DNA from: a bacterium
GTDB taxonomy: Bacteria > Krumholzibacteriota > Krumholzibacteriia > G020349025
Length of the DNA stretch: 19,427 bases
Assembly (NCBI GenBank): GCA_031362565.1
Contig: JANLSU010000008.1
Span: 1 to 19,427, forward strand
Direction: 5' to 3'
The position numbers and the translations under genes are program-made. The first letter of the stretch is position 1, and each line of letters begins with the position of its first letter. Shown here piece by piece: positions 2,193 through 19,427 of this stretch. The notes under the pieces were generated by a model. The model did no database searches, had not been told where the DNA came from, and was given only the letters and a program-made list of their open reading frames with translations.

Positions 2193-2242
2193 GCGCCTCC
2201 ATGCCGGTCGAAGTGGAGCGTGCGCCTGCCTCGCGACGTTCC

Positions 2243-2267
2243 AAATCTATTGAGGTGCAATAGTTTA
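2243..2267. promoter_or_regulatory. AT-rich palindromic protein-binding site (CTATTG-N5-CAATAG; IHF-core-like CAA-N4-TTA)
   Basis: AAATCTATTG-AGGTG-CAATAGTTTA in the divergent intergenic region; stands out against the GC-rich background. Confidence 0.45.
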
Positions 2268-2324
2268 GCTCCAGAAGGCCGGCCTGGTCAAGTGGCCCGC
2301 GACAGCCGCGTTCCACGCAAGTCC

Positions 2325-2340
2325 GGGCACGGATCTTGTT
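2325..2340 (+). promoter_or_regulatory. putative sigma54 (-24/-12) promoter for the fad cluster
   Basis: GGGCACGGATCTTGTT versus consensus TGGCACG-N4-TTGC(A/T); correct spacing, GT instead of GC at -12; 46 nt upstream of the thiolase ATG. Confidence 0.4.
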
Positions 2341-2386
2341 TGCTCGCAATCGATTCGGACGACGGATCCGCAGTGGGGGGACGCGC

Positions 2387-3673
2387 ATGCCTGGACAACC
2401 GCAAGTCGCCGTGGTGGCGGGAGTGCGAACGCCTTTCGTGCGTTCGGGCACCCGCTTCCGCGACCTGTCCGCCGTGCGCCTGGGCGAAGTCGTCGTCTCG
2501 GAACTGGTGCAACGCGCCGGACTCGATCCGGAACTCGTCGACGAAGTGATTCTCGGCAACATCGCGCAGCCCGCCGATGCCACCAACGTCGCACGCGTGG
2601 TGGCGCTCCGGGCTGGAATTCCGATCGATCGTCCCGCCTATACGGTGCAACGCAATTGCGCTTCGGGCATGCAAGCGATCACCAACGGCGCCGAAGCGAT
2701 TCTATGCGGCCGCGCCGAAGTCGTGATTGCCGGCGGCACCGAATCGATGAGCGCTATTCCGCTGCTCTTCCCACCGGCCATGAGCGACTGGCTGGCGGGT
2801 TTCGTTCGTGCCAAGACCGTGGTCCAGCGCTTGAGCGCCGTCGGTCGATTCCGCGCCGCGTATCTCAAGCCGCGCATCGCCCTCGAAATGGGCCTGACCG
2901 ACGCGTACGCGGGCATCAACATGGGACAAACCGCCGAGGTGCTGGCGCGCGAGTTCGGGATTCGCCGCCGCGACCAGGATGCCTACGCGGTCGAGAGCCA
3001 CCGGCGCGCCGTGCAGGCCCGGCCGCACTTACGCGACGAAATCGTGCCGACGCCGACCGCCGACTTTACGGCGCTTCTGCAAGACGACTTTGGACCGCGC
3101 GAGGATGCCTCGGTCGACCGCTTGGCGAAGATGCGGCCGTACTTCGACCGCCGTTCGGGCACCGTCACCATCGGCAACTCGTGTCCGATCACCGACGGTG
3201 CCGCCGCCGTGCTGCTCATGAGCGTCGATGCAGCGCGCCGCTACGGGTTCGAACCGCTCGGGGTATTGCGGAACTGGTCCTATGCGGGACTCGAACCCGA
3301 GCGCATGGGGCTCGGTCCCGCCTACGCGACCGCCCGGGTGCTCAAGCAGTCCGGCGCCGCGTGGCGCGACATTCAACTCGTGGAATTGAACGAAGCATTC
3401 GCGGCCCAAGTGCTCGCGAACCAGCGGGCGTTCGAGTCCGGTGTCGAAGCGGCGCCCGGCCGCACGCCTCTTGCACCCATCGGAGCGATCGACCCCGAAC
3501 GGCTGAACGTCAACGGCGGCGCGATCGCCTTGGGACATCCAGTCGGCGCATCGGGCGCGCGGCTCGTGGTGACGCTCTTGAACGAGATGCGGCGCCGCGA
3601 CTGCACGCTGGGGCTTGCGACCTTGTGTATCGGCGGCGGGCAGGGGGCGGCGCTCCTCTTCGATCGCAACTAG
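2387..3673 (+). CDS. fadI: acetyl-CoA C-acyltransferase (3-ketoacyl-CoA thiolase), FadI-type beta subunit
   Basis: GVRTPF, catalytic Cys in [31 protein letters not shown] 2387 follows GGGGGG. Sits directly upstream of a fadJ-like gene. Confidence 0.9.
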
Positions 3674-3708
3674 GCAACCGCATCGAGGAGCGCAACGTGG
3701 GAGGACCG

Positions 3709-5919
<2,211 letters not shown>

Positions 5920-5935
5920 AGAAACAGGCATTGCC

Positions 5936-6895
5936 ATGATGGGTCGCGTGCGCCATGGTGGCCGCCGTCCTCGGACGGCTCTTGTTTTGGGCTCCGGCGG
6001 GATCAAAACCGTCTGCCATATCGGACTTTTCAAAGTACTGCGGCGTCAGGGCATCCCGATCGACCTCGTGGTGGGTTCGAGCGGCGGCGCGCTCTTCGGC
6101 GCTGCCTATGCGCTCGGCACCGACCCCGACGTCCTCGAGCAGGCCGTGCGCCGTTACTGGCGCCGCGAACTCTTCCGCGACTACGGCTACAGCTCGATGC
6201 TCAAGATGCTGTCGCCGCGCCTGTTCCACTTCGACGAAAATTTCGGCATTCTAAAAGGTGAATCGGTACGCCGGCTCTTGAGCCGATTGCTTGGGCGGGT
6301 CCGTTTCGAGGACCTCGAGACCAAGCTCCTGGTCGTGGCGACCGACCTGCAAACCGGCGACGCGACGGTGCTGCGCGACGGACTGCTGTCGGAAGCCATC
6401 CGCGCCAGCATTGCGATTCCGATTCTCCTGCCGCCGTATCGCGTCAACGGCCGGTGGCTGCTGGATGGAGCGGTGAGTTCGCCGCTGCCCATCGAGCATG
6501 CGATCGCCGAGGGCGCCGAAGTCATCATCGCGATGGGTTTTCCTTCGGCCTTGCACCCGCGCATCGACGGGCCGCTAAGGCTCGTGACCCAGCTCATGCG
6601 CATCGCCGGCAATCGCCTGTACCGGGCTGAACTCGCCTATCATGCGCGCAACCCGGCCATCGAGGTCGTGAACATCGAAGTGCAGTGCAATGCCAACATC
6701 GGCATTCGCGACGTGCACGAGATTCCGACCCTCGTCGCCATGGGCGAAGAGGCCGCCGAACGCGCCCTGCCTGATATCCGGCGCACGCTGGCGGAGTTTC
6801 ACACGACTCGCAACCGCACCAAGCGGCGCATTCGCATTTCGATGCGGCGCGCTCTGCGCACCGCGGTGACGGATTTGCCCGAGTACGGTTCGTAG
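5936..6895 (+). CDS. patatin-like phospholipase (RssA/NTE-like)
   Basis: ALVLGSGGIK oxyanion loop, VVGSSGGA nucleophile (GxSxG), ASIAIP, LLDGA catalytic Asp motif. Start at ATG 5936 or 5939. Confidence 0.9.
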   Translation: MMGRVRHGGRRPRTALVLGSGGIKTVCHIGLFKVLRRQGIPIDLVVGSSGGALFGAAYALGTDPDVLEQAVRRYWRRELFRDYGYSSMLKMLSPRLFHFDENFGILKGESVRRLLSRLLGRVRFEDLETKLLVVATDLQTGDATVLRDGLLSEAIRASIAIPILLPPYRVNGRWLLDGAVSSPLPIEHAIAEGAEVIIAMGFPSALHPRIDGPLRLVTQLMRIAGNRLYRAELAYHARNPAIEVVNIEVQCNANIGIRDVHEIPTLVAMGEEAAERALPDIRRTLAEFHTTRNRTKRRIRISMRRALRTAVTDLPEYGS

Positions 6896-6969
6896 GCGGG
6901 GAGGGGCGCGTTCGTATGGGGCGGGCGCGTCGGGGGTCATCCGCATTACGGTCGAGGTGAGGCAGCACC

Positions 6970-7878
6970 ATGCACGAGCATTCCATCGAACGCCCACAGG
7001 ATTGGTGGCATCGCCTCACGGCGTGGTTGCGCGAGGCCACGAGTTCGCTCGTGCGGCGCAACGACACGCCGCTTGCACTGCCGACTTCGGCCACACTTGC
7101 CGCCCAGCGCGCGGCGCGCGCCGAGGCCGAGCGCCGCTATGTATTCCACATGCAGGGCCGGCGCATCGGCTGTCTGCTCGTGCACGGCCTCACCTCCACG
7201 CCGCAGAGCGTGCGGGCGCTGGGTGAAGCGTTCGCGGCGCGCGGTATCGACGTCGAATCGGTGCTGCTCCCCGGCCACGGCACGAGCCCCGAGGATCTCG
7301 AGACGACGTCCTGGGAACAGTGGTACGAAGTCGTCCGCGGCGGGCTCGACCGCTTGCGGCCGAGGTGCGACCGCATGTTCGTGTGCGGCCAGTCGATGGG
7401 CGGTGCGTTGGCGCTCCGCGCCGCGGCCCGCGAGCCCTTGGACGGGGTCATCACATTGGCCGGGTTCGTGTATCTCAAGGATTGGCGGCTGCGATTCCTG
7501 CCGGCAATGAAGCACTTCACGCATTGGCGCAAGTGCATCGGCAACGACATCGCCGATACGTCGCGCCGCGATGAAGTCTGTTACGACCGCATCGCGCTCT
7601 CGACCGTCGAGCAACTCGTGTCGCTTGGCCAGGCGGTGCGCAGCGATCTCCCCAAGATCGAGGTGCCGGCACTCGTCATCCAATCGCGCGTCGACCACGT
7701 CGTGCCGCCCGAGACGGCCGACCTCATCTACGACACGATTGCCTCCACCGACCGCGAGTTGGTGCGGCTCGAGAACTCCTACCACGTCATCTCGATGGAC
7801 TTCGACTTCGACATCGTCGTCGAACGGAGCGTCCGCTTCATGCGCCGCGTCGCCTACGCGGAACAGCGGGCGCGCTGA
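6970..7878 (+). CDS. alpha/beta hydrolase, carboxylesterase / monoacylglycerol lipase (YvaK-like)
   Basis: LLVHGLTSTP, LPGHGT, GQSMGG (Ser), DHVV (Asp), NSYHVIS (His); GAGG upstream of ATG. Confidence 0.9.
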   Translation: MHEHSIERPQDWWHRLTAWLREATSSLVRRNDTPLALPTSATLAAQRAARAEAERRYVFHMQGRRIGCLLVHGLTSTPQSVRALGEAFAARGIDVESVLLPGHGTSPEDLETTSWEQWYEVVRGGLDRLRPRCDRMFVCGQSMGGALALRAAAREPLDGVITLAGFVYLKDWRLRFLPAMKHFTHWRKCIGNDIADTSRRDEVCYDRIALSTVEQLVSLGQAVRSDLPKIEVPALVIQSRVDHVVPPETADLIYDTIASTDRELVRLENSYHVISMDFDFDIVVERSVRFMRRVAYAEQRAR

Positions 7879-7894
7879 AACGGGCGGGGGCCAA

Positions 7895-7917
7895 GCCGTC
7901 ACCGCCCGCCGAGTCCG
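7895..7917 (+). repeat. 23-bp direct repeat, copy 1 (GCCGTCACCGCCCGCCGAGTCCG)
   Basis: Identical to 9956-9978; 16 bp after the esterase stop codon. Confidence 0.9.
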
Positions 7918-7986
7918 ATGGGCCTGGTGGCAGGTTCTTCTTTCCCCGCGATCGCGGCGTGTATAGAGTCGCCTGGGGAGCGGTCT

Positions 7987-9375
7987 ATGGCACCTGGGCG
8001 GGAATTCGGGCACGGCGAGCGGCAACGACGGGACGTTCGAAGGCGAACCTCGTCGCGGTCGATTCTGAAATGCCTGACGACTGCACTGCCGGTGATTGTT
8101 CTGGTGTTTGCGAGTGCGGTTCGGGGGCAAACCACGACCGGGATCGTGCGTTGGACCGACGCGCCCTATCCACAAGGCACAACCCACGTCGCCATCGAAG
8201 TTGTCGACCCTGACCGCGACTTGCAACCCGGAGCTCCCGATCAGGTCCTCGTACACGCAGAGAGCCCGTCCGATACACCGGAACCGCTCGTCCTGACCGA
8301 GACGGGTGCGCACACGGGAATATTCCGCGGGTCCATCCCATTGGACACCGTGGCTTTGGGCCAGGGCCCCGGCGTACAGGACGGCCGGGTGCAAGGCAGG
8401 ATCGGCGACTCGCTGACGGCCCGCTACATCGATCCCACCGACGATTTTGGCAATCCCAAGGTTCTGACTCAACAAGTTCTGCTCGCCGGTCTCGAGGGGC
8501 GGCTCCCGCGAGTTCTCAGCATGGCGTCGAGTCCTTACGTCGTTACCGCGGATGTGGAAGTCGCCGGCGGTGACACGCTCCACATCGAACCAGGTGTCGA
8601 GATTCGCTTCCTGCCTCGGCGGTGCATGCGCGTTCTTGATCGAGGCTCCTTCATCGCGCCGGGCACTCCGGAGAACGAAATCCACTTCGTAGCGCATCAG
8701 TCCGGCCCCGCATCTCACTGGGGATGCCTTTCGTTCCTCGAAGACAACTTCGACAGCCTGCCTGTTGCACTGCACCATGTCATCTTCGAGGGTGGCGGCA
8801 ATGGACAAACCGCGTCTCTCTTGGCCGAGAGGCCCCTGTCTTTGTACGACTGCGCCGTGCGTTCGTCGTCGTCCGCTGGAGTACTGAGCTACAACGCGGC
8901 GCTCTACCTCCGGAATGTCGACCTCATTGGCAATCAGGAGGATGGGATCCAGTCGGACCGCAGTCTCGATTGGCGCGGTGGACGAGTCGAAAGCAACGGC
9001 GGGAGCGGGATCCACGTCGGCGGCGCCGGATCCCTGCCACTGGCAACCATCGACTCGGTGCTCGTGCAAGGTAACGGTCTAGATGGCATTTCCGATCACA
9101 CGGAGAGTCCCTTGGCCCACGTCGTCGTCCGCCACTGTACGGTCAAGAACAACGGCGGCCATGGGGTGTACAAGACATCGGAACCCAGTGGGGCATTGTC
9201 GGTGACCGAGTGCCAACTGCAAGACAATAATTCGGGCTACGATCTGTACAACGATTCGACGAATGATGTGCTCGCGCAGTACAACGACTGGGGTCCGGCG
9301 ACGACATCAGAGATGAACACTGGACCCAACCCGCGGAACATCGCGCGGATCTTCGATGTGAATGACGATCCCAGC
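7987..9375 (+). pseudogene. N-terminal part of a secreted Ig-like + right-handed parallel beta-helix surface protein (truncated, fused in frame to the next fragment; the open frame continues to 10173)
   Basis: GGGGAG then ATG 7987; signal peptide (CLTTALPVIVLVFASAVRG-Q); VVDPDRD...LTETGAHTGIFRGSI...GDSLTARYID Ig-like module; SPYVVTADVEV...IEPGVEIRF and repeated N..DGI/N.G.GI beta-helix rungs; ends at YNDWG...IFDVNDDPS. Confidence 0.65.
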
Positions 9376-9825
9376 ACCGCTGCACTCGAGGCGACTGGGC
9401 GTTCGTTGGGCGCTTTGATGACGGCGGCCGCGGCGGTTGGATTCTCCGGCGTGGTTCTCGTCGCCCAAGATGACAGGATCCTGTTGCGCCAGGCCTACGG
9501 GCTCGCAGATCGCAGCACCCGCACCCCGGTTACCGTCGAAATGCCATTCGACATTGGTTCGATTACGAAGCAATTCACCGCCGCGGCGATTCTGCGCCTC
9601 GAAATGCAAGGCAAGCTCGACGTTCAGCAGCCGATCTCCACCTATCTGGACAGCGTGCCGGCCGACAAGGCCGGGATCACGCTGCATCATGTCTTGACTC
9701 ACACCGCCGGATTTCCCGAGTACTCGGGGGACGACTATGCCGCGGCGACTCGCGACCCCACCGTGAAGAATATCCTCGCGACCCCGATCGAGTCGAAGCC
9801 GGGATCGGCATTCGAGTACTCGAAC
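9376..9825 (+). pseudogene. fragment of a beta-lactamase class C / serine hydrolase family protein
   Basis: GFSGVVLVA, AYGLAD, FDIGSITKQFTA (SxxK at 9559-9570), LTHTAG, PGSAFEYSN (YxN at 9817-9825). Similarity stops right after YSN; there is no H/K-T/S-G motif, and the rest of the frame (to 10173) reads antisense into the next gene. Confidence 0.75.
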
Positions 9826-9955
9826 CCCACTCGCGCCGACATCGGCAACAACCTTCGTCGGCTTTCACCTGGGCATCGCGCGGCCGGTCCAGGTGACTTT
9901 TTCGCCGGCGGCTCCCGGTCCCGTCGCCACACTGCAGATCTCCTGCGGCGGCCCT

Positions 9956-9978
9956 GCCGTCACCGCCCGCCGAGTCCG
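9956..9978 (+). repeat. 23-bp direct repeat, copy 2
   Basis: Identical to 7895-7917; 47 bp beyond the stop codon of the minus-strand ATP-grasp gene. Confidence 0.9.
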
Positions 9979-10025
9979 GTAGGCTGGAGCGGCGTTCGCG
10001 CGGCGTTGAGTCATTCCGGGGTCAG

Positions 10026-12011
10026 TCAACGCGTGAACCTTGCCGCGAGCTTGATCGCACGGCCGCGGCCGCTCTTGATGAAGCGGAAGAGTGCGCGCAG
10101 CCAAGGAGAATGTCGCGGCGCATCGGATTCCGGAGCGACACCGATGAGTTGGACCGTGTTGGCGTCGAGATAACGAGCCCGCGCGACTTCGATCACGCGG
10201 CCGAGGATCTGACTATGCGAATACCCAGCGCGCGCGCCGGCCTTCGCGAACGATCCGCTCTCGTCGAGGATTCCGACGGTGTTGATCTCGATGACATAGG
10301 CCTGACCCAGCTCCGAAATTCGAAAATCGATGCGCGCGTAGTCGCGGCAGCCGCATGTCCGAAAGGTGGTCCGAGCGTAGGCACGGATCCGCTCGGCCAA
10401 CGCTGCATCGATCCGCGCCGGGCACGTCTTCTTGTTGGCCGTGCGGTCGAATTCCACGAGGGGCAGGCACTCGATGGGATCGTTACCGAGCAAGGCCACC
10501 ATGACCTGCCGCCCGGCAATGTACTCCTCCACGAGGACCTCCTGCCGGTACTTCCGCTTCACTGTCTTGACCGTGTCCTTGAGCTGCTGTGGGTCGCGGA
10601 CGATGTGCGAACCGTACCGCCATTCATGGCGTGGCTTGACGATCAACGGAAACTCGAGTCCTTCGATTTCATCGCGCGAACGTGCCATGAGATGGAACCC
10701 TGGCGTCGGAACTCCCGCTTGCTGGAGAAGCGTCTTGGCAACGACCTTGTCGGAAATGACTGCGTGGCCGTTCGGAGTCGGTCCGGCGTAAGCAATGCCC
10801 GCCATTTCGAGCATTGCAGGCACGTGGGTGTAGCGGCCGTTGCCCTGAATACCGTGCGCGAGGTTGAGAACGATTCCGCCGGGGTGGCCGGTCCGGGGGT
10901 TGGGCGGCACGAATTGGTTCAACTCGTTCAGAAGCGACATATCGCCTTCGAGGACCTTGACCGTGTGCCCGCCCGCCCGCAGGCTGTTGACGATTCTCTG
11001 CACCGAATGGCGCGCCAACCGGGCCGGCGTCGGTTGCCCGAGACGGGCGATCGTGCCGGTACCCATGGAATTGCGGACGACCGCGACGCGGTACGCGCCC
11101 TTGTTCGAGAGCAGCTCGGGAAGCGCCATGCCGGCCATCTTCGAGTCCCAATCCTGGAACAGCTGGAAATCCATGAATTCCGCGATGAGGACGATTGCGA
11201 CGAGTTGCGTCAGAAGAATCTCGGGGAACTGCAGGGCGGTTTCGAGGACCGCCGGCACCTTGGTCAGCAGGACCATCAGGACAGCCAGGATGATCGTTGT
11301 GGCCGCACGCCATGAGGCGGAGAGCAGGCTATCTTTATTCAATGTGTTGACGATGCCCTCGGCGAGCATTCCCAGGACGATAACTGGGAAATACGCCACG
11401 CCCCAGAGGACCTCCGACCGGACCCAAGGCCCGGCCAGGAGGGCCGTCACCATGGTGATTGCGACGATGGACAGAATGACCGAGACCCGCGCGTAGTACG
11501 GCAGTCGGAACTTCTTGAGCCACGGCCGCACGAGTGACACCGTGACGACCACGACCGCGATCAAGAAGAGGCTCGGAAGAATGCCAACTTGGTGGAAACC
11601 GACGGCGACCAAGATCGACCGAAAGCCGAGCACGCGAATCCCGCACGTCAGTCGAGCGAGCACGATCAGCATTGCATAGGAAGGGACGAGCAGCAAATAC
11701 AAGATGTGCGATCGCTGCCCAGCGGGAACCGAAGCGAGCGAGAACGTTTCGTTGAGCGCACCGCCGAGCCTGCGAAGCGCGTCGAGACCGGGCATATTCC
11801 ACCCGAGGCTCTCGATGCCGGGAAGTGCAGTGGCCCGGATGATCATGGTGACGAACGGGAGCGCACCAAGAACGAGCAACCATCGCAGCGTTCGGCGCGG
11901 GATGTGACCCTTGGGGCGCAGTCGAAATCTCGACGCCTTCGGATTCGGCCGGGGCGCGGCGGCGACCGGGGGAGTGTCGCGGACGCGCAAGTTCTCGATG
12001 CGCGCGCTCAC
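10026..12011 (-). CDS. fusion of a 7TM domain (7TM_transglut-like) and a D-Ala-D-Ala-ligase-like ATP-grasp domain
   Basis: Membrane part (~11150-11890): FSLASVP..Q..ILYLLLVP...LARLTCGIRVLG, YARVSVILSIV, YFPVIVLGMLAE, FPEILL. ATP-grasp part (~10170-11100): VLNLAHG, VPAMLEMAGIAY, DKVVAK...GVPTP, FPLIVKP, VLVEEYIAGR, CPA, RDYARIDFR, VIEINT. GTGA overlap with the upstream HlyD gene. Confidence 0.85.
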   Translation of the reverse strand: MSARIENLRVRDTPPVAAAPRPNPKASRFRLRPKGHIPRRTLRWLLVLGALPFVTMIIRATALPGIESLGWNMPGLDALRRLGGALNETFSLASVPAGQRSHILYLLLVPSYAMLIVLARLTCGIRVLGFRSILVAVGFHQVGILPSLFLIAVVVVTVSLVRPWLKKFRLPYYARVSVILSIVAITMVTALLAGPWVRSEVLWGVAYFPVIVLGMLAEGIVNTLNKDSLLSASWRAATTIILAVLMVLLTKVPAVLETALQFPEILLTQLVAIVLIAEFMDFQLFQDWDSKMAGMALPELLSNKGAYRVAVVRNSMGTGTIARLGQPTPARLARHSVQRIVNSLRAGGHTVKVLEGDMSLLNELNQFVPPNPRTGHPGGIVLNLAHGIQGNGRYTHVPAMLEMAGIAYAGPTPNGHAVISDKVVAKTLLQQAGVPTPGFHLMARSRDEIEGLEFPLIVKPRHEWRYGSHIVRDPQQLKDTVKTVKRKYRQEVLVEEYIAGRQVMVALLGNDPIECLPLVEFDRTANKKTCPARIDAALAERIRAYARTTFRTCGCRDYARIDFRISELGQAYVIEINTVGILDESGSFAKAGARAGYSHSQILGRVIEVARARYLDANTVQLIGVAPESDAPRHSPWLRALFRFIKSGRGRAIKLAARFTR

Positions 12012-13165
12012 TTCTTCCGAATCCCGACCACAGCCGAGAGCCCCGGAAACAGACCCTGCAGATCTTCGAGCCGGATCCGGACACAGACCACCGGTGCGGA
12101 TCGCATCCGCTCGCTGCGCGGTTGGGGGACGGACGACTCCGGGAGCTCGTAGTCGGTCGAAACGCCGATCGTCTCCACGACGCCGGCGAAGATCCGGCCG
12201 GGGAACGGTTTGACCGTGACTCGCGCCGCGCTTCCAACCTCCATGTTCGCCAAGTCGTTTTCATTGATCCACGCCTCCACCCACAACCGCTTACCGAGCC
12301 AAAGGGAGGCAACCGGTTGTCCGAGCGTGACGGAGCCGCCGGGTTCGGCGATCCGGCGGATGACCCAGCCATCCTCCGGGGCGCGAATCAGAGTGGCCCG
12401 GAGGTCGGCTTCGGCGAGTTGGAGCTCGGCGCGGTAGGCGGCGATTTCGGCCTCGAGAACGACGATGTGCTGCTCGCGAATCGACAGTCCTTGCGACTCC
12501 ACTTCAGCCAACTCGTGCGCTGCTTCGGCAGCTCGTTGGTCCGCCTTGGCTGTCGCACCCTCGGCATTGGCGCTGCGGCGGTTCGTATCGGCGCTTCGCA
12601 ACTCCTCCGAAGGAACGACCCCGGCCTTCGTGAGCGTTTGTGCCAGGGTGTATCGTTCGCCGGCATCTTGAACGTGAGTTTGAGCGGCGTCGGCTTGGGC
12701 CTTGGCCGCCGCGACGCGGGCAGATGCCTCCGAGACCAGGCTCGAAAAGCGCCGCCCTTCGTGCGCGATCGACAGGCGCTCGACCTCGAGCGCCAGAGTC
12801 GCCCGCTGGACCTGAGATTTAGCTTGTTCGACTCGGGCCTTCAATTGATCGTCCTGGAGGCGGACGAGAACTTGCCCGGCTTTGACTTGTTGCCCCGCAT
12901 CGACCTCGACCGCGGTTACGACCCCGCTGAGCTGAACGCCCACGTCGGCGACGTAACCCTTTACGATCGCGTTGTTCGACACCACGTAGCCGGCGCGAAA
13001 GCGCGCCCACAAGGCAACGGGCACGACGACCGCCACAATCGCGCCCCCGATGACCACCCGCAGCGCGATCCGCCGCCTCCGGCGCGACCAGCGCCGCTTG
13101 GGAACCGGTTGGGGCTCTGAAGTCGGGATGGTCTTGAGCCTCGAGCGGCGCGCGGTATCACTCAT
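12008..13165 (-). CDS. HlyD/EmrA-family membrane fusion (periplasmic adaptor) protein
   Basis: Basic N-terminus plus one TM helix (IALRVVIGGAIVAVVVPVALWA); lipoyl halves SGVVTAVEVDAGQQVKAGQVLVRL and IRAPEDGWV; long coiled coil; WVEAWINE, GLFPGLSAVV. Confidence 0.93.
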   Translation of the reverse strand: MSDTARRSRLKTIPTSEPQPVPKRRWSRRRRRIALRVVIGGAIVAVVVPVALWARFRAGYVVSNNAIVKGYVADVGVQLSGVVTAVEVDAGQQVKAGQVLVRLQDDQLKARVEQAKSQVQRATLALEVERLSIAHEGRRFSSLVSEASARVAAAKAQADAAQTHVQDAGERYTLAQTLTKAGVVPSEELRSADTNRRSANAEGATAKADQRAAEAAHELAEVESQGLSIREQHIVVLEAEIAAYRAELQLAEADLRATLIRAPEDGWVIRRIAEPGGSVTLGQPVASLWLGKRLWVEAWINENDLANMEVGSAARVTVKPFPGRIFAGVVETIGVSTDYELPESSVPQPRSERMRSAPVVCVRIRLEDLQGLFPGLSAVVGIRKK

Positions 13166-14073
13166 CGCTTACCTCCATCCTGGAATAGCGCTTTGAACAC
13201 CCGGTCACCGAGCTGTCCATCTTCCATGAATTGGCGGAACGAGTGGGCGATTCCGGGGACGTGCTCGAACGTGATCTGCGGCTCGATGTGCAATGCGTTG
13301 GCCGTGTTCCGCATCGCCACAGTCCAGTTTCGCGCCCGATCGAGACGCGTCACACCTTGCTGCCGATCGACCTGCGCATTCCGCCGCATGTTTCGGCTCG
13401 TCGTGTCCGCCTCGCCGACGAATACGGCAATCGGCACTTGCAGGAATCGGGACGGGTCGAATGTCACACCCGAGAGCCCTTTGGGACGCGTGCCGTACGG
13501 ATAGTCCGTTCCCGGATCCGGGAACGTGTACCAACCGGCCGACGTGACGGCCGCGCGTGCGACGCGCTCCGGATGTGCCATTGTGTACCGGTGCGCGAAT
13601 TGCGCGCCGCCGGAGAATCCAAACAGGTAGATTTTGGTCGCAGCTGCACCGGTCAGGGACGCGACTTCCTCGACGATCGATTCGAGCCCGTCGTCCGAGC
13701 GCCGTCCGTGCTTGGCGCGGCCGAGCCGTTGAAAGTCATCGAAGTCTCCCGCCGGGAAGAACGGCGCCAGGAGAACCACGCCGGATGTTTCGGCATATGG
13801 AGATAACAGGCGCGCATGCTCCTCCGCGTTCCGGGACGTCCCGTGAACGGCAACGAAGATGCGTGCACCTTGGCCGCCGTGCCGAGGAACGTAGACGTAG
13901 TAGTGTTGTCCGGAGTCCGCGCGCACGGAGCGCAGCAGGACCTGGCCCACGGGGAGGGTAGCGACGGCAGCGGTATCCGCCGGTGAAGACACCGTCGAAT
14001 TCGCCGCCGCCCAGGTCACCGGTGCGAAGCCGAGAGCGCAACACGCGAGTCTGATCGAGATCTTCCAGAACAC
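13162..14073 (-). CDS. alpha/beta hydrolase (esterase/PHB-depolymerase-like), probably exported
   Basis: YYVYVP, VAVHGTSRN, GFSGGAQFAHRY (Ser), VGEAD (Asp), GIAHSF (His). Start uncertain: GTG 14073 (AGGTG upstream) gives a signal-peptide-like N-terminus; ATG 14175 is an alternative. ATGA overlap with HlyD. Confidence 0.82.
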   Translation of the reverse strand: MFWKISIRLACCALGFAPVTWAAANSTVSSPADTAAVATLPVGQVLLRSVRADSGQHYYVYVPRHGGQGARIFVAVHGTSRNAEEHARLLSPYAETSGVVLLAPFFPAGDFDDFQRLGRAKHGRRSDDGLESIVEEVASLTGAAATKIYLFGFSGGAQFAHRYTMAHPERVARAAVTSAGWYTFPDPGTDYPYGTRPKGLSGVTFDPSRFLQVPIAVFVGEADTTSRNMRRNAQVDRQQGVTRLDRARNWTVAMRNTANALHIEPQITFEHVPGIAHSFRQFMEDGQLGDRVFKALFQDGGKR

Positions 14074-14161
14074 GCGGACGCACCTGCCGGTCGACCGACG
14101 TGCCGCCGCAGATGCCTGGGTCCGGGGATCCGTGTGCGGCCGGGGGAGCAGGACCACGAGA

Positions 14162-15031
14162 CTACGGATTACCATTGCCACCATTCGGAGCCGGAGCGCT
14201 CGGCCCGCCAAATAGCGCTTCGAAGGCCCGGCCACCGAGTTGATGATCCGCTGCAAGGCTCTTGAAAGAGTGGCTACCGCCGTCGATTTCCCGGAGGGAG
14301 ACGAGCGGATGGAAGCGATAGGCGTCCGCCGCGGCGCGCATCGACGCAACCCAATTTCGGGCTCTCTCGACTCGGGTTACGCCCTGGGCGTCCGCCCGTT
14401 TGGTTCGGCGCATGCCCGCCGTGGTCGTATCCTCGGAACCCACGAAGACCGTGGTCGGAACACGCAGGAACTCTTCAGGGTCGAACCGCACGCCGCGCAG
14501 GCGCGAAGTCGGCCGGATCCCGTACGGGAATCGGTCGCGAGCGTTCGGAAACGTATACCAACCAGCCGAGACGATGACAGCCCGCGCGACCCGCGACGGG
14601 TACGCCATCAGGTAGCGGTGCGCGAATTGAGCGCCACCGGAGTGCCCAAACAAGTGGATCTGTTGTGTCACCACGCCCGTCAACCACATGACTTCTTCGA
14701 TGATCGCGTTGAGCGCGAGGTCGGAACGGGCACCCCGCCCCTGGAATCCGAGCCGTTGGTAGTCGGGATGCTGTTCCTTCGCGAAGTGCGGAGCGACGAG
14801 GACGACGCCGAGCGCCTCTGCATACGGCGCGAAGCGCTTGACGAGGTCACGAGGATTCCGCGAAATCCCGTGTACGAGCACACACAGTGGCGCATCGCGG
14901 CTATCCAATCGCGGAACATACACCAGGTACTCTTGCGCTGGATCGGTGCGAAGCACGCGGCGCAATACCGTTTGCTTCGCCAGCGGCCCACCGACCTTCG
15001 GCGTCGGCTGACCAATTCGTGCCGTTTCCAT
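14162..15031 (-). CDS. alpha/beta hydrolase, paralog of the downstream gene, probably cytoplasmic
   Basis: YLVYVP, VLVHGISRN, GHSGGAQFAHRY, VGSED, GGSHSF. ATG 15031 follows AAGGGGAG; alternative GTG 15046 overlaps the upstream stop (GTGA). Confidence 0.87.
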   Translation of the reverse strand: METARIGQPTPKVGGPLAKQTVLRRVLRTDPAQEYLVYVPRLDSRDAPLCVLVHGISRNPRDLVKRFAPYAEALGVVLVAPHFAKEQHPDYQRLGFQGRGARSDLALNAIIEEVMWLTGVVTQQIHLFGHSGGAQFAHRYLMAYPSRVARAVIVSAGWYTFPNARDRFPYGIRPTSRLRGVRFDPEEFLRVPTTVFVGSEDTTTAGMRRTKRADAQGVTRVERARNWVASMRAAADAYRFHPLVSLREIDGGSHSFKSLAADHQLGGRAFEALFGGPSAPAPNGGNGNP

Positions 15032-15042
15032 GGACTCCCCTT

Positions 15043-16284
15043 TCACGACCGCGGTTCGCTCCCGTTGACGATCGCACCGTCGCTCGCTCGACTGGGATAC
15101 GAAGCGTGCGAGGACCCTGGCGAGTCGCCGTTACTGTTGTTCCCTTCATGTCGCCCTGACGGAACGATGTTGTCGTCGACGGCCGCACCCTGCGTCTGGT
15201 TTAGGATCTTCATCGCGATGCCCGCTCGCGAAAGATCCTCGCGATTGTATGCCGGTAGTCCGGTCGCCCGCCGTGCCTCTTCGGATTGCAATGGTGATGC
15301 GGTCAGCACTCCTCCGAATGCGACAACGGGCAGGCCCGCGTCACGCAGGAAGTGGTAACCCGCCACGGCGCCCATTGCGTCGCCGGCGGTGAACAGAAGA
15401 ACGCTCACGGCGGCCTTGAAAACCGGGGACGAAAGCAAGGCGGCCGTCTCCTGTTGCAGCACGCCGTCGGCGACCTCGAGCACGATCGCGTCAACGCTGG
15501 CCTTGGTCAGGTAGGCGATGAGCATTTTGAACGTCGACTCGATTTGGCTCTGCGGCACCAAATACGTCGACACCAGGCCGGCATCGGTGAAATCGAGAAC
15601 CGGATAGGCGCCGGCATCGCGTAGGAGCCACGTGTCGCCGCCCGCCCCAGTGCCCGTAACTTTCGCGTAGCCAACGCGGAGCCCGGCGCGGGTCAACCCT
15701 TTAGTCAGGTAGGCAGCGGTCTGGGTCTTCCCCGAGTCCATGCCGGTTCCGACCACGGCGACGGTCGCCGGGTACGCCCCTGTTTGCTGGTCGGGGACTT
15801 GAAGAGCGTAGTCACGGATATTGACCGGTGTGCCAGCTGTGTCCGCGAGCAACCCGATCGGTGTGATCTGAGTTGGTCCCTTGGTGATCTTCGCATGCCA
15901 CGACCGCGCCTTGGCGGCAACTCCGCCGCTCGCGACGAGATGACACGGGCCGAGCGTTTCCGGAACGATCGCCTCGAATTGATTCGCAGCGTAGCGGTTC
16001 CCATAGACCACGACGATCTCGTCGCCTTCGAAGAGGTGTACACGTCGACCGTCCGCGAGTTGCAGACCGGTGTGATTCCGGATCACGTCAACGCGCGCCA
16101 GGAGCAATTGTCCGGCTTCAGGCTTACTTGCTTCCTTGATGATCGAGAAGATCGCGCTGTGCGGCACTCTGCGTGTCGTGTGCGCCCAGGCTGCACGGCG
16201 GAGCCGGGTCATTTCCGACCGCAGGCCACGACCGGTGTGCAGGTCACTTGTCGCGCGCTGCTCAGTGGATCCGGGATCCAACAT
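15043..16284 (-). CDS. DUF1611-like P-loop NTPase (BioD/SIMIBI-like)
   Basis: GNRYAANQFEA, LVASGGVA N-terminal region; P-loop VVGTGMDSGKT; AKVTGTGAGGD, DFTDAGLVSTY, VLEVADGVLQQET. ATG 16284 follows GAGGGAGGG; alternative ATG 16212. Confidence 0.82.
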   Translation of the reverse strand: MLDPGSTEQRATSDLHTGRGLRSEMTRLRRAAWAHTTRRVPHSAIFSIIKEASKPEAGQLLLARVDVIRNHTGLQLADGRRVHLFEGDEIVVVYGNRYAANQFEAIVPETLGPCHLVASGGVAAKARSWHAKITKGPTQITPIGLLADTAGTPVNIRDYALQVPDQQTGAYPATVAVVGTGMDSGKTQTAAYLTKGLTRAGLRVGYAKVTGTGAGGDTWLLRDAGAYPVLDFTDAGLVSTYLVPQSQIESTFKMLIAYLTKASVDAIVLEVADGVLQQETAALLSSPVFKAAVSVLLFTAGDAMGAVAGYHFLRDAGLPVVAFGGVLTASPLQSEEARRATGLPAYNREDLSRAGIAMKILNQTQGAAVDDNIVPSGRHEGNNSNGDSPGSSHASYPSRASDGAIVNGSEPRS

Positions 16285-16377
16285 CCGAAACCGCCCTCCC
16301 TCGGGACGTCGCTCGCCCGCAGTTCCGCTCCGGGTTGCGCGACAGTGGTGTTGCAACGAACAACGCGCGACAGGAAT

Positions 16378-16487
16378 TGCCAACAGCGCGCCGTGTGCAC
16401 CTTCGGGTTGACCCCCGACCAAAGGGCCCATGAAGAATAGCTATACCATCGTTAAGAATGGGTAATCGCTCAACAAACAACGCGTTA
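16378..16487 (-). promoter_or_regulatory. AT-rich promoter region of the DUF1611 operon with sigma54-like and IHF-like elements
   Basis: Minus strand CGGCGCGCTGTTGGCA (16393-16378; GG-N10-GC) and TGGTATAGCTATTCTT (16448-16433; lacks the -12 GC). Plus strand AAACAACGCGTTA (16475-16487) is one mismatch from the IHF consensus WATCAA-N4-TTR. Confidence 0.3.
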
Positions 16488-16638
16488 CAGGCGTTTCTCG
16501 ATTGGGTGGTTGAACCCATTTTTGCCGACGCAGCGGTGCAATGAGCGCCGCCCTTCGGCCACGCCGGCGGCGTCCCGGCCGACGCCCGGCCACGGTCCAA
16601 GAGCCGTGCGGCGCATTCTGTTGAAGGTGGTTGGCGTT

Positions 16639-17556
16639 TCAGGTTTCCCAAATCGCGGTCTCGAACCGGCCACTCGAATCGGCAGCGCCGCGGTACATGC
16701 CGGCACTGTTGAAGACGAGAGCGATCTCGCCGCTCTTCGAAACCGCGATGAGCCCGCCGTCGCCGGGCTGAAGCTTGCCGTCGATCACTCCGTGCGCCGC
16801 GTCCGCGAGCGGCATGGCCCGATACTCGACGAGGGCCGCGACATCGCGGGCCACAGTATTCCGGATGAACTGTTCGCCCCGGCCGGTGCACGAAACCGCG
16901 CAGTTGCGGTCGTTCGCGTAAGTTCCCGCGCCAATGATCGGCGAGTCGCCGACCCGGCCCCAACGTTTGTTGGTCACGCCCCCGGTGGACGTGGCGGCGG
17001 CGAGATGTCCGTGCGTGTCGAGCGCCACGCAGCCGACGGTTCCGAGTTCCTCCGCGAGTAACGTTCTTTGCCATTTATTTCGGCGCCGGCGTGTGTCGAA
17101 CCAACGGTTGTCGACAACCGGCACGCCCTGGGACCGGGCAAAAGAGTGGGCGCCGGGACCGGCAAGGAACACATGAGTCGATTTCTCCATCACCAGGCGC
17201 GCCAGGCTAATTGGATTCCGCACGGTTCGTACGCCTGCCACGGCGCCGCACTCGAGCGTCGCGCCGTTCATGATCGCGGCATCCAGCTCGTGCTTTCCGC
17301 TGTGCGTGTAGACGGCACCTTTGCCCGCGTTGAACAGCTTGTCGTCTTCGAGGGCCCGGACTACGGCTTCGACGGCGTCGAGGCTCGTGCCGCGTTTCGC
17401 GAGAATCGTGCGGCCCAGTTCAAGCGCGCGTTGGAGCGACGTTCGGTACGCGTCCGCCCGCGTCGGTTTCATGTCCTTGGAAATGTGCCCGGCGCCGCCA
17501 TGCAAGGCGAGCGCCCAGAGCGGGCGCGGCACGCCGCGTGCGGATTTCGGAACCAC
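16639..17556 (-). CDS. iaaA: isoaspartyl peptidase / plant-type L-asparaginase (Ntn hydrolase)
   Basis: LALHGGAG, LEDDKLFNAGKGAV, ELDAAIM, autocleavage site G-TVGCVALD, ATSTGG, RVGDSPIIGAG, SCTGRGE. GTG 17556 follows GGAGG; the longer N-terminus in the ORF track is spurious. Confidence 0.93.
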   Translation of the reverse strand: MVPKSARGVPRPLWALALHGGAGHISKDMKPTRADAYRTSLQRALELGRTILAKRGTSLDAVEAVVRALEDDKLFNAGKGAVYTHSGKHELDAAIMNGATLECGAVAGVRTVRNPISLARLVMEKSTHVFLAGPGAHSFARSQGVPVVDNRWFDTRRRRNKWQRTLLAEELGTVGCVALDTHGHLAAATSTGGVTNKRWGRVGDSPIIGAGTYANDRNCAVSCTGRGEQFIRNTVARDVAALVEYRAMPLADAAHGVIDGKLQPGDGGLIAVSKSGEIALVFNSAGMYRGAADSSGRFETAIWET

Positions 17557-17589
17557 TGCAGCCTCCGAAAGACGTCGACCAACGAGCGT

Positions 17590-17598
17590 ACCATAGCA
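17590..17598 (-). promoter_or_regulatory. putative extended -10 element for iaaA
   Basis: TGCTATGGT (TG-n-TAnnnT) about 34 nt upstream of the GTG start; no convincing -35. Confidence 0.25.
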
Positions 17599-17802
17599 GA
17601 GGAGGCGGGCGATGACTCGAGGGTGTGCGGCATCATCATTGGCTGACGCCGTGCTGACCTGCACCAATGCGCCATGGCACACGAAGCCTGGCCGCGAGGC
17701 TACCGAGGCAGTGTTTCGAGCAAGTCCAGCAACGGCCAGAACTCTGTCGCGCCGCGGTTGAGCCGGCGCGGACCGAGAAAGATCGCAATCCGGCGCAGGG
17801 GT

Positions 17803-18010
17803 GGCAACGACGGGCGGTTCGACGGCGAACCTCGTCGCTATCCAACCGACGGCTGCGGTAATCCGAGGATTCTTACGCAGCAGGTCCTGCTCGCGGGTCT
17901 CGAGGGGCCGCTCCCCCGAGTGAAGACAACTTCGACAGCCCGCTCGTAGCACTGTCTTGAGCTACAACGCTGCTCTCTACTCGGAATGTCGACCTGGTTG
18001 GGAATCAGGA
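17803..18010 (+). pseudogene. telescoped relic of a paralog of the beta-helix gene at 7987-9375
   Basis: Four collinear blocks match 8021-8056, 8431-8514, 8740-8758 and 8881-8939, with the intervening sequence deleted and a 2-nt frameshift in the last block. Confidence 0.88.
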
Positions 18011-19427
18011 CAGCTGGTCCAACCCATACCGCCGCACCAGCGCCGCAAACCGCGGATCGCTCCGGATGGGATCCAACCGCGGGTGCACCCGCAGGAAGAT
18101 CAACCCGGTCGCGCCCTCATCCATCGCGGTATCGAGCCAGCGGAACGCGTCGTCGACGTCGCCCAGGCTGGCATGCACCGCGGCGATACCCCACGCCGAC
18201 ACGACGCGCTGTGAGCGGGCGGCGGTGAGTTCGGTGAGCATGCGCCGTGCGGCGTCGACGTTGCCACTGCTCGCCTCGAGATGCGCCAGGCCGAAGGATG
18301 GCCCCGCGACGGCGCCGGCCAACCGGCGGCCTTCCTCGTACTCGGCGCGGGACTCGTCGAAGTTGCCGAGTGCTTCCAACGAGCGCGCGAGATCGGTGTG
18401 CGCGCCGTCGAAGCGGGGGTCGAGCCGGATCGCCTTGCGGTAGTAGCCGGCGGACTTCTCGTATTCGCGCGCATAGTAGTAAGCGTCGCCGACCGCCGTA
18501 TGCAGGATCATCGACAGAGGATCGAGGCTCACGGACTTGAGCATCGCCTCCTGGGCCTCGGCGTGACGCTCGGTACAGTAGTAGATGCGTCCGAGCACGT
18601 GATACGCTGGCGTGAGCCCGGGATTCAGTTCGATCGCCTTCTGCAGCGACCGGATTGCCCCCGGCAGATCGCGTTCGAACGCTTGAACGCCGCCCAGCAC
18701 CGAGTAGGCGTCGGCCAGCGAGTCGTCCAGTTCGAGAGCCTTCATCGCGGCGGCGCGCGCTTGCGCGCACGCTTCGGCAGGCGGCGCCATGCCGCGCGCG
18801 GCGCGTGTGTAGTGGCACTCGGCCACGCCGGCCCACGCCGGCGCGTACATCGGATCGAGTTCGAGGGCGCGCTGGAAATACCGCAGGCTCAAATCGATGG
18901 CTTCCGGCGAACTCGCGGCCACTGTGTGCTGGCCCTTGAGGTATTCCAAGTGCGCTGCCGGGTTCACCTCTTGCTGCCGGGCGAGACGTTGCGCCTCGCC
19001 GGGCGTGACGCGAATGGCGATCTCCTTCGCAACAGCGCCCGCGACTTCACTCTGCAGGGTCAGGATGTCCTCGAGATCGCGGTCGTAGCGATCGCTCCAC
19101 AACATCTCGTCTTGCCGGGCGGAAACGAGCTGCACGCTGATGCGGACTCGGTTGCCGACGAGGAGTGCCGAGCCTTCGATGATGGCGTCGACATTCAACT
19201 CGCTCGCGATCTCGGGCAGCGCCCGATGGACGCCTTTGTATTTCATGGCGCTGGTGCGCGAGATGACACGCAAATGCCGCAGGCGCGCCAAGTCGGAGAT
19301 CAGCGCTTCGGTCATGCCGTCCGCGAAGTACTCCTGGGCCGGGTCGCGCGACAGGTTGTCGAGCGGCAGAACGGCAAGCGAACGGATGACGCCCGGTTCG
19401 GTGACGGCGCTTTCGCGCTGCCCACCG
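18005..19427 (-). CDS. TolB-N-like + TPR repeat protein (C-terminal part; 5' end beyond right edge; such modules usually follow a kinase, cyclase or winged-helix domain)
   Basis: Frame open to the edge: IRSLAVLPLDNLSRDPAQEYFADGMTEALISDLA, VISRTSAMKYK, VDAIIEGS, WSDRYDR, TPRs (ALELDP, AIELNP, AIRLDP), terminal DPIRSDPRFAALVRRYGL. Confidence 0.92.
   Translation of the reverse strand, partial: GGQRESAVTEPGVIRSLAVLPLDNLSRDPAQEYFADGMTEALISDLARLRHLRVISRTSAMKYKGVHRALPEIASELNVDAIIEGSALLVGNRVRISVQLVSARQDEMLWSDRYDRDLEDILTLQSEVAGAVAKEIAIRVTPGEAQRLARQQEVNPAAHLEYLKGQHTVAASSPEAIDLSLRYFQRALELDPMYAPAWAGVAECHYTRAARGMAPPAEACAQARAAAMKALELDDSLADAYSVLGGVQAFERDLPGAIRSLQKAIELNPGLTPAYHVLGRIYYCTERHAEAQEAMLKSVSLDPLSMILHTAVGDAYYYAREYEKSAGYYRKAIRLDPRFDGAHTDLARSLEALGNFDESRAEYEEGRRLAGAVAGPSFGLAHLEASSGNVDAARRMLTELTAARSQRVVSAWGIAAVHASLGDVDDAFRWLDTAMDEGATGLIFLRVHPRLDPIRSDPRFAALVRRYGLDQLS

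Follow-up and report, generated by a model that had tools for sequence, protein, structure and literature searches.

Operons that combine a seven-transmembrane (7TM) domain of family PF14402, an ATP-grasp protein and an exported hydrolase of acidic peptides have a named representative in Pseudomonas aeruginosa, RloB/RloC/RloA. The retropepsin RloA cleaves polyglutamate. A strain without its three RloA proteases has defects that are relieved when rloB or rloC is mutated; lack of the secreted protease does harm only as long as both of these genes are intact (passages of bioRxiv 10.1101/2025.03.18.643919). The simplest reading of this rescue is that the ATP-grasp and 7TM proteins would deliver to the envelope a cargo that requires cleavage there. 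A different hydrolase family, the PahZ1 enzymes, is presented as degrading poly(aspartic acid), a synthetic polymer, in passages of PMC13017698 and PMC4456602; in those found from the former, the words "natural substrate", "operon", "neighbor" and "cyanophycin" do not occur. Cyanophycin itself is described, in the passages found, as a polymer with an Asp backbone and Arg side chains that is made by ATP-grasp chemistry and degraded via beta-Asp-Arg dipeptides. Here we analyze a 19,427-nucleotide stretch of Krumholzibacteriota DNA (assembly GCA_031362565.1, contig JANLSU010000008.1, positions 1 to 19,427, called the window below) that encodes a single protein, P0001, in which a PF14402 7TM domain lacking the transglutaminase is fused to an ATP-grasp domain resembling D-Ala-D-Ala ligases (Ddl). 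We tentatively favor the view that five genes form a cassette of the RloB/RloC/RloA kind which exports and trims an Asp-rich isopeptide polymer, with this fusion as its core at the inner membrane.

The fusion gene (10026..12011, minus strand) starts with GTG and is read through 661 codons without an internal stop. Its product begins with an Arg/Lys-rich tail of low predicted local distance difference test score (pLDDT), with 11 Lys+Arg (aa 1-42; 11886..12011), followed by a first transmembrane (TM) helix placed from the AlphaFold2 (AF2) model and the charge count (aa 43-63; 11823..11885), a 37-residue loop (aa 64-100; 11712..11822), the 7TM block (aa 101-281; 11169..11711), a linker of low model confidence (aa 282-305; 11097..11168), the Ddl-like ATP-grasp domain recognized by sequence and fold matches (aa 306-617; 10161..11096) and a basic tail, predicted to be helical with low confidence, whose coding sequence overlaps the 3' tail of a converging plus-strand open reading frame (ORF) (aa 618-661; 10029..10160). 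The first-pass annotation of this DNA had described this layout, one N-terminal TM helix, a short loop, a 7TM block and a Ddl-like domain in one frame, and was right to assign the TM block to the 7TM_transglut family: Pfam places PF14402 at aa 89-286 (nt 11154-11747; E 3.5e-17, 63.2 bits against a cut-off of 25), and the match recurs in a whole-genome search. PF07478 (Dala_Dala_lig_C) covers aa 429-608 (E 2.8e-23). The transglutaminase is absent, as had been claimed, with no match to its families (e.g. PF14400, PF01841) in Pfam at E <= 0.01; the 37-residue loop occupies the site that the inactive transglutaminase takes up in RloB-type proteins. PF14402 itself reportedly goes back to Iyer et al. 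2009.

In the AF2 model (37 homologues in the alignment, pLDDT 78.4, predicted template modelling score 0.56), a helix spans 39-60 and precedes a short segment outside the membrane, after which seven hydrophobic helices extend as far as residue 279; a linker of low prediction quality leads to the alpha/beta domain, 304-617. The ATP-grasp part has the three-subdomain fold of its class; the matches listed in a fold search with the whole protein were taken up by ATP-grasp structures, and the search is hence silent on the fold of the TM block. Lys and Arg number 21 on the stretches assigned to the cytoplasm against 5 on those assigned to the periplasm, as counted by a hand rule on our own segmentation and not by a topology program. 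The N terminus and the ATP-grasp domain, the latter as already expected, would thus be cytoplasmic and the 64-100 loop periplasmic. Invariant residues of the 7TM block include R120, R131, R162, E218, E264 and D281.

The fusion is no artefact; it is real and widespread. Scoring of 8000 candidates at E <= 1e-3 yielded at least 273 homologues, and the 120 listed (44-71% identity, about 560-1060 aa, from many assemblies) carry both PF14402 and PF07478 without exception. Some family members (P0126, P0149, P0188) have a lamin-tail domain (LTD) at the C-terminus of the fusion itself. Contigs from three public sequencing runs cover the junction between the 7TM and ATP-grasp parts without indels or joints, although the run behind the sole piece spanning all of 10600-11700 may be the one from which the window itself was assembled. 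With each species represented by one genome, a scan gave 52 loci with the fusion in many groups, among them Acidobacteriota (including "Acidobacteria bacterium Mor1"), Halieaceae, Eisenbacteria, Limnocylindria, Planctomycetota and Myxococcota, as well as Chromatocurvus halotolerans DSM 23344 and metagenome-assembled genomes (MAGs) of Nitrosomonas and Thiobacillus. Full-length orthologues occur in only 2 of 30 relatives of the window's genome, both of the same family, and the cassette is therefore patchy and accessory-gene-like in its distribution.

The conserved partners of the fusion, which had escaped the first-pass annotation, carry most of the functional argument. On the minus strand the genes follow the order P0005, P0004, P0003, P0002, P0001, with 4-nt overlaps at the P0005/P0004, P0003/P0002 and P0002/P0001 junctions. 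P0002 (12008..13165, 385 aa) is a periplasmic adaptor of the HlyD/EmrA type, anchored in the membrane at its N terminus as judged by eye; it scores 56.3 bits against 30 for PF16576, 48.9 against 22.2 for PF13437 and 103.6 against 94.9 for TIGR01730. P0003 (13162..14349) and P0004 (14162..15046, 294 aa) are paralogous alpha/beta hydrolases of PahZ1-like serine hydrolase type, termed B and A respectively. The true start of P0003 is probably at nt 14184/14175 (ATG) or 14073 (GTG); it is followed by a hydrophobic stretch resembling an export signal and ending AAA|NS, and none was seen in P0004, both by eye. Their best matches in the Protein Data Bank (PDB) are both structures of poly(aspartic acid) hydrolase-1 (PahZ1), 9o7u (E 2.1e-24 for P0003, 3.8e-18 for P0004) and 6ve6 (6.5e-23 and 6.4e-18). 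The nucleophile box (GFSGG/GHSGG), the Asp of GxxDT and the Arg of GVTRxxR align in both proteins, the last corresponding to a residue to which passages of a paper on PahZ1 homologues ascribe substrate positioning (PMC13017698). The catalytic His (IAHS) aligns in P0003, over nearly the full chain; the alignment of P0004 stops before it. On these grounds the two proteins would qualify as PahZ1 relatives by Ser, Asp and Arg, and P0003 by His as well.

P0005 (15043..16431, with the conserved part beginning near nt 16212) combines an N-terminal beta domain with a BioD/DUF1611/MobB-like P-loop domain of the SIMIBI class. It had no match among PDB sequences at E <= 1, weak MobB and BioD matches only in a profile search, and clusters named "hypothetical" and "DUF1611" only in an Atlas search; its fold matches within the SIMIBI class include BcsQ, Get3 and the SRP GTPases. 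A complex prediction pairing it with aa 300-625 of the fusion scored 0.00 and counts neither way. Further upstream on the same strand, separated from the cassette by at least 207 nt, lies P0006 (16639..17952), a homologue of Asparaginase_2/beta-aspartyl (isoaspartyl) peptidase by Pfam and NCBIfam, with the gene of a tetratricopeptide repeat (TPR) protein beyond it.

The window's proteins were compared with the 52 fusion loci by tblastn. The adaptor gene lies directly upstream of the fusion in 49 loci, the three exceptions having the fusion at a contig edge. PahZ1-like hydrolases were found in 44, with two matches per locus in 23 of these, and the P-loop protein in 40, most of the misses being short contigs; where present, the latter is in most loci the best-conserved partner (47-67% identity, 37-38% in three). 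The beta-aspartyl peptidase, the TPR protein and a beta-helix ORF described below have counterparts in 0 of the 52 and are specific to the window; the peptidase was accordingly rejected as a part of the conserved system. As to the direction of transport, one could envision a catabolic or uptake system for external polymers resembling polyaspartate or cyanophycin, in which secreted PahZ1-like enzymes do the cutting and the fragments enter through the 7TM block, as the known activity of PahZ1 enzymes and the peptidase gene upstream in the window might suggest. We consider this very unlikely: HlyD-family adaptors match efflux and secretion models, one of the two hydrolases has no export signal that we could see, and the Rlo genetics, in the passages cited above, point outward.

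The relatives of the 7TM domain place the fusion in a wider family. A search with aa 30-300 of P0001 against 1.84 billion representatives gave 517 matches with E-values of 1e-3 or better, of which 139 were no worse than 1e-10 and 52 no worse than 1e-30; Pfam was run on 136 of the 148 newly returned top matches, 12 being omitted by size. The top matches include fusions, several of them long proteins in which no Ddl match was detectable at 1e-6, and many stand-alone 7TM proteins of about 250-340 aa, the nearest non-fused relatives being about 270 aa long. RloB-like proteins with a transglutaminase (P0253, P0258, P0262) appear only at the weak end, PF14400 being detected in P0258 and P0262. Also present were a PKD-7TM protein and a 325-residue protein (P0234) that carries the C-terminal end of a gamma-glutamyltranspeptidase match and a 7TM_transglut block in one chain; this may reflect faulty gene calling or an additional fusion, one linking GGT to the 7TM domain. 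A PF14402 domain without transglutaminase is thus common, and with at least 273 homologues and 52 species genomes on record the architecture is not the rarity it had been taken for.

An alignment of 25 stand-alone 7TM proteins led to 80 metagenome loci (L056-L135) at which the two halves of the fusion are encoded separately. In 71 of them a gene for an ATP-grasp protein 40-53% identical to aa 301-625 of P0001 directly follows the 7TM gene; in most of the other nine the contig ends within a few hundred bases of that gene. The TM identity of these split relatives to P0001 is 30-49%. Because a separate homologous ATP-grasp gene follows the nearest non-fused 7TM gene so regularly, the Rosetta-stone link that had been proposed from the fusion alone is confirmed. 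A gamma-glutamyltransferase (GGT) gene precedes the pair (one ORF cluster with members in 43 of 80 loci, two of them tested), a radical S-adenosylmethionine (SAM) enzyme of the KamA family follows or is fused to the ATP-grasp gene in the three loci tested, and a two-component system (response regulator, histidine kinase) often follows the operon, L072 2536-9478 being an example. Matches to HlyD, PahZ1-like and P-loop proteins were found in 0 of 80. Since the radical SAM enzyme is of aminomutase type, it suggests a beta-amino-acid substrate, and the split operon as a whole suggests an exported, processed peptide of a beta-amino acid.

The split enzymes also provide the yardstick by which the ATP-grasp domain of the fusion can be judged. 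Seven positions of Escherichia coli DdlB, K97, K144, E180, R255, D257, E270 and N272, which we take to be ATP/Mg ligands, align with K422, K459, E495, R560, D562, E575 and N577 of P0001, so that all seven are kept in the window. Their invariance in the split enzymes, where they read K-K-E-R-D-E-N in 54 of 55, serves as an internal benchmark independent of the presumed DdlB roles. The displayed split enzymes further have a Ser/Thr-rich loop (KPRHESTSYG, against KPSREGSSVG in DdlB) and, in all rows but L084, a long omega loop with DKYHK. P0001 has no Ser-rich loop (KPRHEWRYGS), and where 1iov/1iow have the omega loop, the alignment to them shows a gap, the loop of P0001 having 11 residues against 29 in the relatives that bear this lid. 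The seven positions are kept in 7 of 7 lid-bearing fusions and in only 6 of the 113 that lack the long omega loop, P0001 among these, or in 13 of 120 family members overall. In DdlB numbering, Asn remains at N272 in only 14 of the 120 members, E270 is Gly in 38, R255 is Val or Leu in 25 and D257 is Asn in 20. Among the species-genome loci, the pattern is canonical in 2 of the 45 with the region covered (L008, L031), both lid-bearing.

In a tree of the ATP-grasp domain (FastTree, 184 sequences, LG+gamma, given without support values) rooted on 20 split enzymes, which form one clade, nine lid-bearing fusions make up the first branch and all lid-less fusions are their sister group. P0010, the closest listed relative of P0001 (71% identity), stands beside it and has His at the N272 (N577) position. 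The two parts also differ in conservation: measured against P0001, the 7TM block exceeds the ATP-grasp domain in 110 of 119 members (medians 57.6% and 50.0%), whereas the split systems show the reverse, 0.74 for the ligase columns against 0.51, although the sequence sets differ and the comparison is rough. An alignment of 37 sequences nonetheless contains invariant ATP-grasp motifs outside the catalytic positions (e.g. C-R-D-Y-A, G-N, C-P); the domain is therefore retained, apparently not for Mg-ATP chemistry. These sequences suggest an active ligase as the ancestor of the Ddl-like domain, one that would survive in the split pairs and in the basal fusions, and the window's clade appears to have lost both active-site lids and relaxed the constraint at the catalytic positions. 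A domain for binding substrate or nucleotide, for gating or for docking would thus be more likely than a polymerase.

These findings bear on two interpretations of the domain as an enzyme. Its closest sequence and fold matches are D-Ala-D-Ala ligases, and it might in principle make or sense D-Ala-D-Ala at the membrane in a cell-wall function. That is extremely unlikely: the NCBIfam Ddl models, aligning to aa 336-611, score far under their cut-offs (at best 121.3 bits against 243 for NF002378 and 116.7 against 245.65 for TIGR01205), the omega loop that holds K215/Y216 in E. coli DdlB, presumably the Lys-Tyr pair of Ddl specificity, is deleted, a separate Ddl-sized match lies elsewhere in the same genome (G000:C87) and the cassette has no murein genes. 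The other interpretation is that of the first-pass annotation, a self-sufficient, one-chain synthase-translocase in which the Ddl-like domain would use ATP to polymerize an amino acid and the growing chain would leave through the 7TM block, in the manner of PgsB and PgsC together. Its export half fits the overlap of the HlyD gene with the start of the fusion. Its synthase half is doubtful, given lid loss and catalytic drift: P0001 is without the Ser-rich and omega loops of the split enzymes, its closest relative is already altered at the N577 position, one or more of the catalytic positions are gone in 107 of the 113 lid-less fusions, and the Ddl model gives 121 bits where 243 would be required. 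To be sure, P0001 itself has all seven catalytic positions, the split and basal relatives have canonical ligases beside or fused to the same 7TM domain, and in one genome with a lid-bearing fusion (G031), HlyD and the fusion stand as a two-gene module, no P-loop or PahZ1-like gene having been found in that genome. On balance we regard the self-sufficient synthase-translocase as unlikely, while residual ligase activity in the window's protein is a minority prospect that deserves to be taken seriously.

The contents of G031 raise the question of whether the P-loop protein replaced a failing ligase. In a second genome with a lid-bearing fusion, G032, the fusion lies at a contig edge, and a P-loop and PahZ1-like pair with no HlyD match next to that pair is present on another contig, which weakens a strict coupling of lid loss with gain of the P-loop gene. 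With these two genomes at odds, a simple replacement story is not established. The bond-forming protein could be the residual ATP-grasp domain, a possibility in P0001 because its ligands are intact, the BioD/DUF1611-like P-loop protein, or enzymes encoded elsewhere.

If bonds are formed elsewhere altogether, the cassette might be an exporter only, with an acidic substrate supplied by other pathways (e.g. beta-Asp peptides from cyanophycin, or some other metabolite), the degenerate ATP-grasp domain as a cytoplasmic receptor for it or as a gate, the P-loop protein as the ATPase motor of a tripartite-type efflux machine, and the hydrolases acting on exported or external material. The tight coupling of the adaptor to the fusion, the SIMIBI class of the P-loop protein, with transport and secretion ATPases among its fold matches, and the conservation of the ATP-grasp fold without its metal ligands all fit such a machine. 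We nevertheless find it improbable: the sequence type and best matches of the P-loop protein are BioD/DUF1611-like, the TM block of P0001 matched no known transporter family in Pfam at E <= 0.01, and no separate synthase was found conserved across the 52 loci.

Hints at the product come from genes that recur near the fusion. In a survey that clustered crude ORFs of the loci and tested example members, antisense pseudo-clusters from GC-rich loci (clusters 3, 9 and 10) being disregarded, a cyanophycinase cluster lay directly downstream of the fusion in 7 loci, both members tested scoring above the TIGR02069 cut-off. A cluster of 14 ORFs in 13 loci comprises truncated cyanophycin-synthetase homologues, three of which match NF010623 at E <= 1e-143 over about 720 (two) or about 590 (the third) of its 871 positions, all below cut-off; a fourth tested member had no Pfam match. 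YheC/D-type ATP-grasp genes were neighbors in 9 loci and PGA_cap genes in 8, with one member tested of each. A gene of the Asp/Asn beta-hydroxylase family lies directly downstream of the fusion in 11 loci (one tested), as seen in the L034-L052 group of Halieaceae and relatives (e.g. L037 11776-12399), whose fusions show the most degenerate ATP-grasp patterns, such as RRERDRL and QMARESR. LTD proteins are encoded downstream in several loci (e.g. L011 11548-13428 and L025 11910-13526; two proteins tested), and weaker second PahZ1-like matches coincide with that site in these and several other loci. In several MAGs of Gammaproteobacteria and Deltaproteobacteria (L012-L016, L030), a second polymer-type gene set lies 4-7 kb upstream of the cassette, with a YheC/D-like ATP-grasp, an alpha/beta hydrolase without Pfam match, PGA_cap and a truncated cyanophycin synthetase.

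Taken together, the PahZ1-like hydrolases and the frequent neighbors point to an Asp-based isopeptide polymer, and the HlyD adaptor of the window's clade suggests passage beyond the inner membrane. In the cassette model favored here, a polyanion of this type, related to cyanophycin or resembling poly-beta-aspartate, would be made or bound at the cytoplasmic face, pass through the 7TM block and be carried across the periplasm by the membrane-anchored adaptor. The PahZ1-like serine hydrolases, one seemingly exported (P0003) and one cytoplasmic (P0004), would trim or recycle it, and in the window alone the upstream beta-aspartyl peptidase could complete its breakdown. The Ddl-like domain would serve as a binding, gating or docking part rather than as polymerase, and P0005 would be the best candidate for the ATP-using step, be it ligation or the energizing of export. 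Whatever is said here of function beyond homology and gene order is inferred, including passage through the 7TM block, the chemical identity of the product and what P0005 and the degenerate domain do. It is tempting to go further and imagine that the cassette makes and secretes a natural Asp exopolymer, poly-beta-aspartate-like or an exported relative of cyanophycin, with the PahZ1-type enzymes, so far known only for degrading a synthetic polymer, as its dedicated depolymerases, the P-loop protein having taken over amide-bond formation and the Ddl-like domain persisting as a pseudo-enzyme gate on a 7TM exporter; this fuller version is quite unlikely.

Several observations weigh against the cassette model. 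The role of the 7TM block as a conduit is suggested by context only, the window has no gene for an outer-membrane partner, and to our knowledge none of the PF14402 systems has an established product. The case for an Asp polymer depends on PahZ1, for which we know of no natural substrate, and the next PDB match of the hydrolases, the "putative PHB depolymerase" LpqC, has an E-value almost equal to that of PahZ1. Cyanophycin genes occur at only a minority of loci, and the isoaspartyl peptidase adjoins the cassette in this window alone; a Cyanophycin_syn search was blank in the window's genome but equally so in control genomes, and is thus uninformative. Finally, with its seven catalytic positions P0001 may still be an enzyme, and G031 is the single clean genome to connect the loss of the lids with the gain of the P-loop gene, G032 pointing the other way.

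The plus-strand genes to the left of the fusion appear unrelated to the cassette. Lipid-metabolism-type genes on the plus strand (2336-7878), encoding a thiolase, a FadB-like enoyl-CoA hydratase/3-hydroxyacyl-CoA dehydrogenase, a patatin-like phospholipase and an S33-type alpha/beta hydrolase, converge on the 3' end of the fusion gene from the opposite strand. The intervening ORF (7918-10173, plus strand) combines a right-handed beta-helix region with a beta-lactamase-family domain that matches only positions 15-148 of a 329-position profile, and turns into Arg-rich low complexity past about aa 640; it overlaps the 3' end of the fusion by 148 nt. No other plus-strand frame continues its beta-lactamase-family domain, and the ORF is probably truncated or frameshifted, or its true stop lies earlier. 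At the left end (3-2192, minus strand), a Ser/Thr protein kinase domain fused to a STAND-type NTPase (AAA_16) runs off the window.

The first-pass interpretation is, as a whole, partly supported. It had allowed that the fusion might prove to be common and already characterized; common it is, but our literature searches found no description in print of the 7TM-ATP-grasp fusion, its cassette, the split GGT/KamA form or the decay of the ligase domain, even though the component families are known and a system of the RloB/RloC-like kind has been named. What emerges is a large fused clade with a decaying ligase and a membrane part that remains conserved, a clean evolutionary series in which to study how an enzyme domain may turn into a non-catalytic transporter component. 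It makes isopeptide polymers of the Asp or Glu type specific candidates for the product that can be put to the test, and suggests a possible natural context for the PahZ1 enzymes, which are of industrial interest.

How the cassette relates to known systems can now be stated. Its likeness to PgsB/PgsC (CapB/CapC), an ATP-dependent ligase with a small membrane component that extrudes a polyanionic amino-acid polymer, is conceptual only: PgsB is a Mur-ligase-type enzyme, not an ATP-grasp, and P0001 has no Pfam match to a family of the PgsC/CapC type at E <= 0.01, so that the comparison once drawn survives as an analogy. From Ddl, P0001 is set apart by falling under every NCBIfam cut-off, by the missing omega and Ser-rich loops and by its tether to a membrane domain. 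PahZ1 (6ve6, 9o7u) is the best PDB relative of P0003 and P0004, whose activity is a prediction from sequence. Cyanophycin metabolism is adjacent in several genomes, where CphB and truncated CphA homologues flank the cassette, and is echoed by the beta-aspartyl peptidase of the window; the window, however, has neither CphA nor CphB, the N and M domains of CphA are missing from the fusion, and cyanophycin is known as an intracellular store, whereas the cassette has an export adaptor.

Both halves of the fusion have their nearest kin in the split GGT-7TM-ATP-grasp operons, which share the gene order, with an exported amidase for acidic amino-acid bonds, GGT, beside the 7TM and ATP-grasp genes; they differ in having two genes for the pair, a canonical ligase and no match to HlyD, PahZ1-like or P-loop proteins. 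RloB/RloC/RloA (RloB being NF052267, "osmotic stress tolerance membrane protein RloB") shares the PF14402 7TM domain, a cytoplasmic ATP-grasp and an exported acidic-peptide hydrolase, and in the passages cited its three proteins act in one process by genetics. RloB was not among the 25 families listed of the 53 that NCBIfam gave for P0001, while its relatives L008 and P0182 match the RloB model over the 7TM part only, with 48 and 79 bits (the whole-protein cut-off being 900). Three operon kinds thus pair the PF14402 domain and an ATP-grasp with an exported hydrolase of acidic (iso)peptides, be it the RloA retropepsin, GGT or a PahZ1-like enzyme. Compared with the Pseudomonas system, that of the window is fused and without transglutaminase, its ATP-grasp is Ddl-like rather than RimK-like and degenerating, its hydrolases are of the alpha/beta-fold PahZ1 type instead of a retropepsin, and the HlyD adaptor and the P-loop protein are additions of its own.

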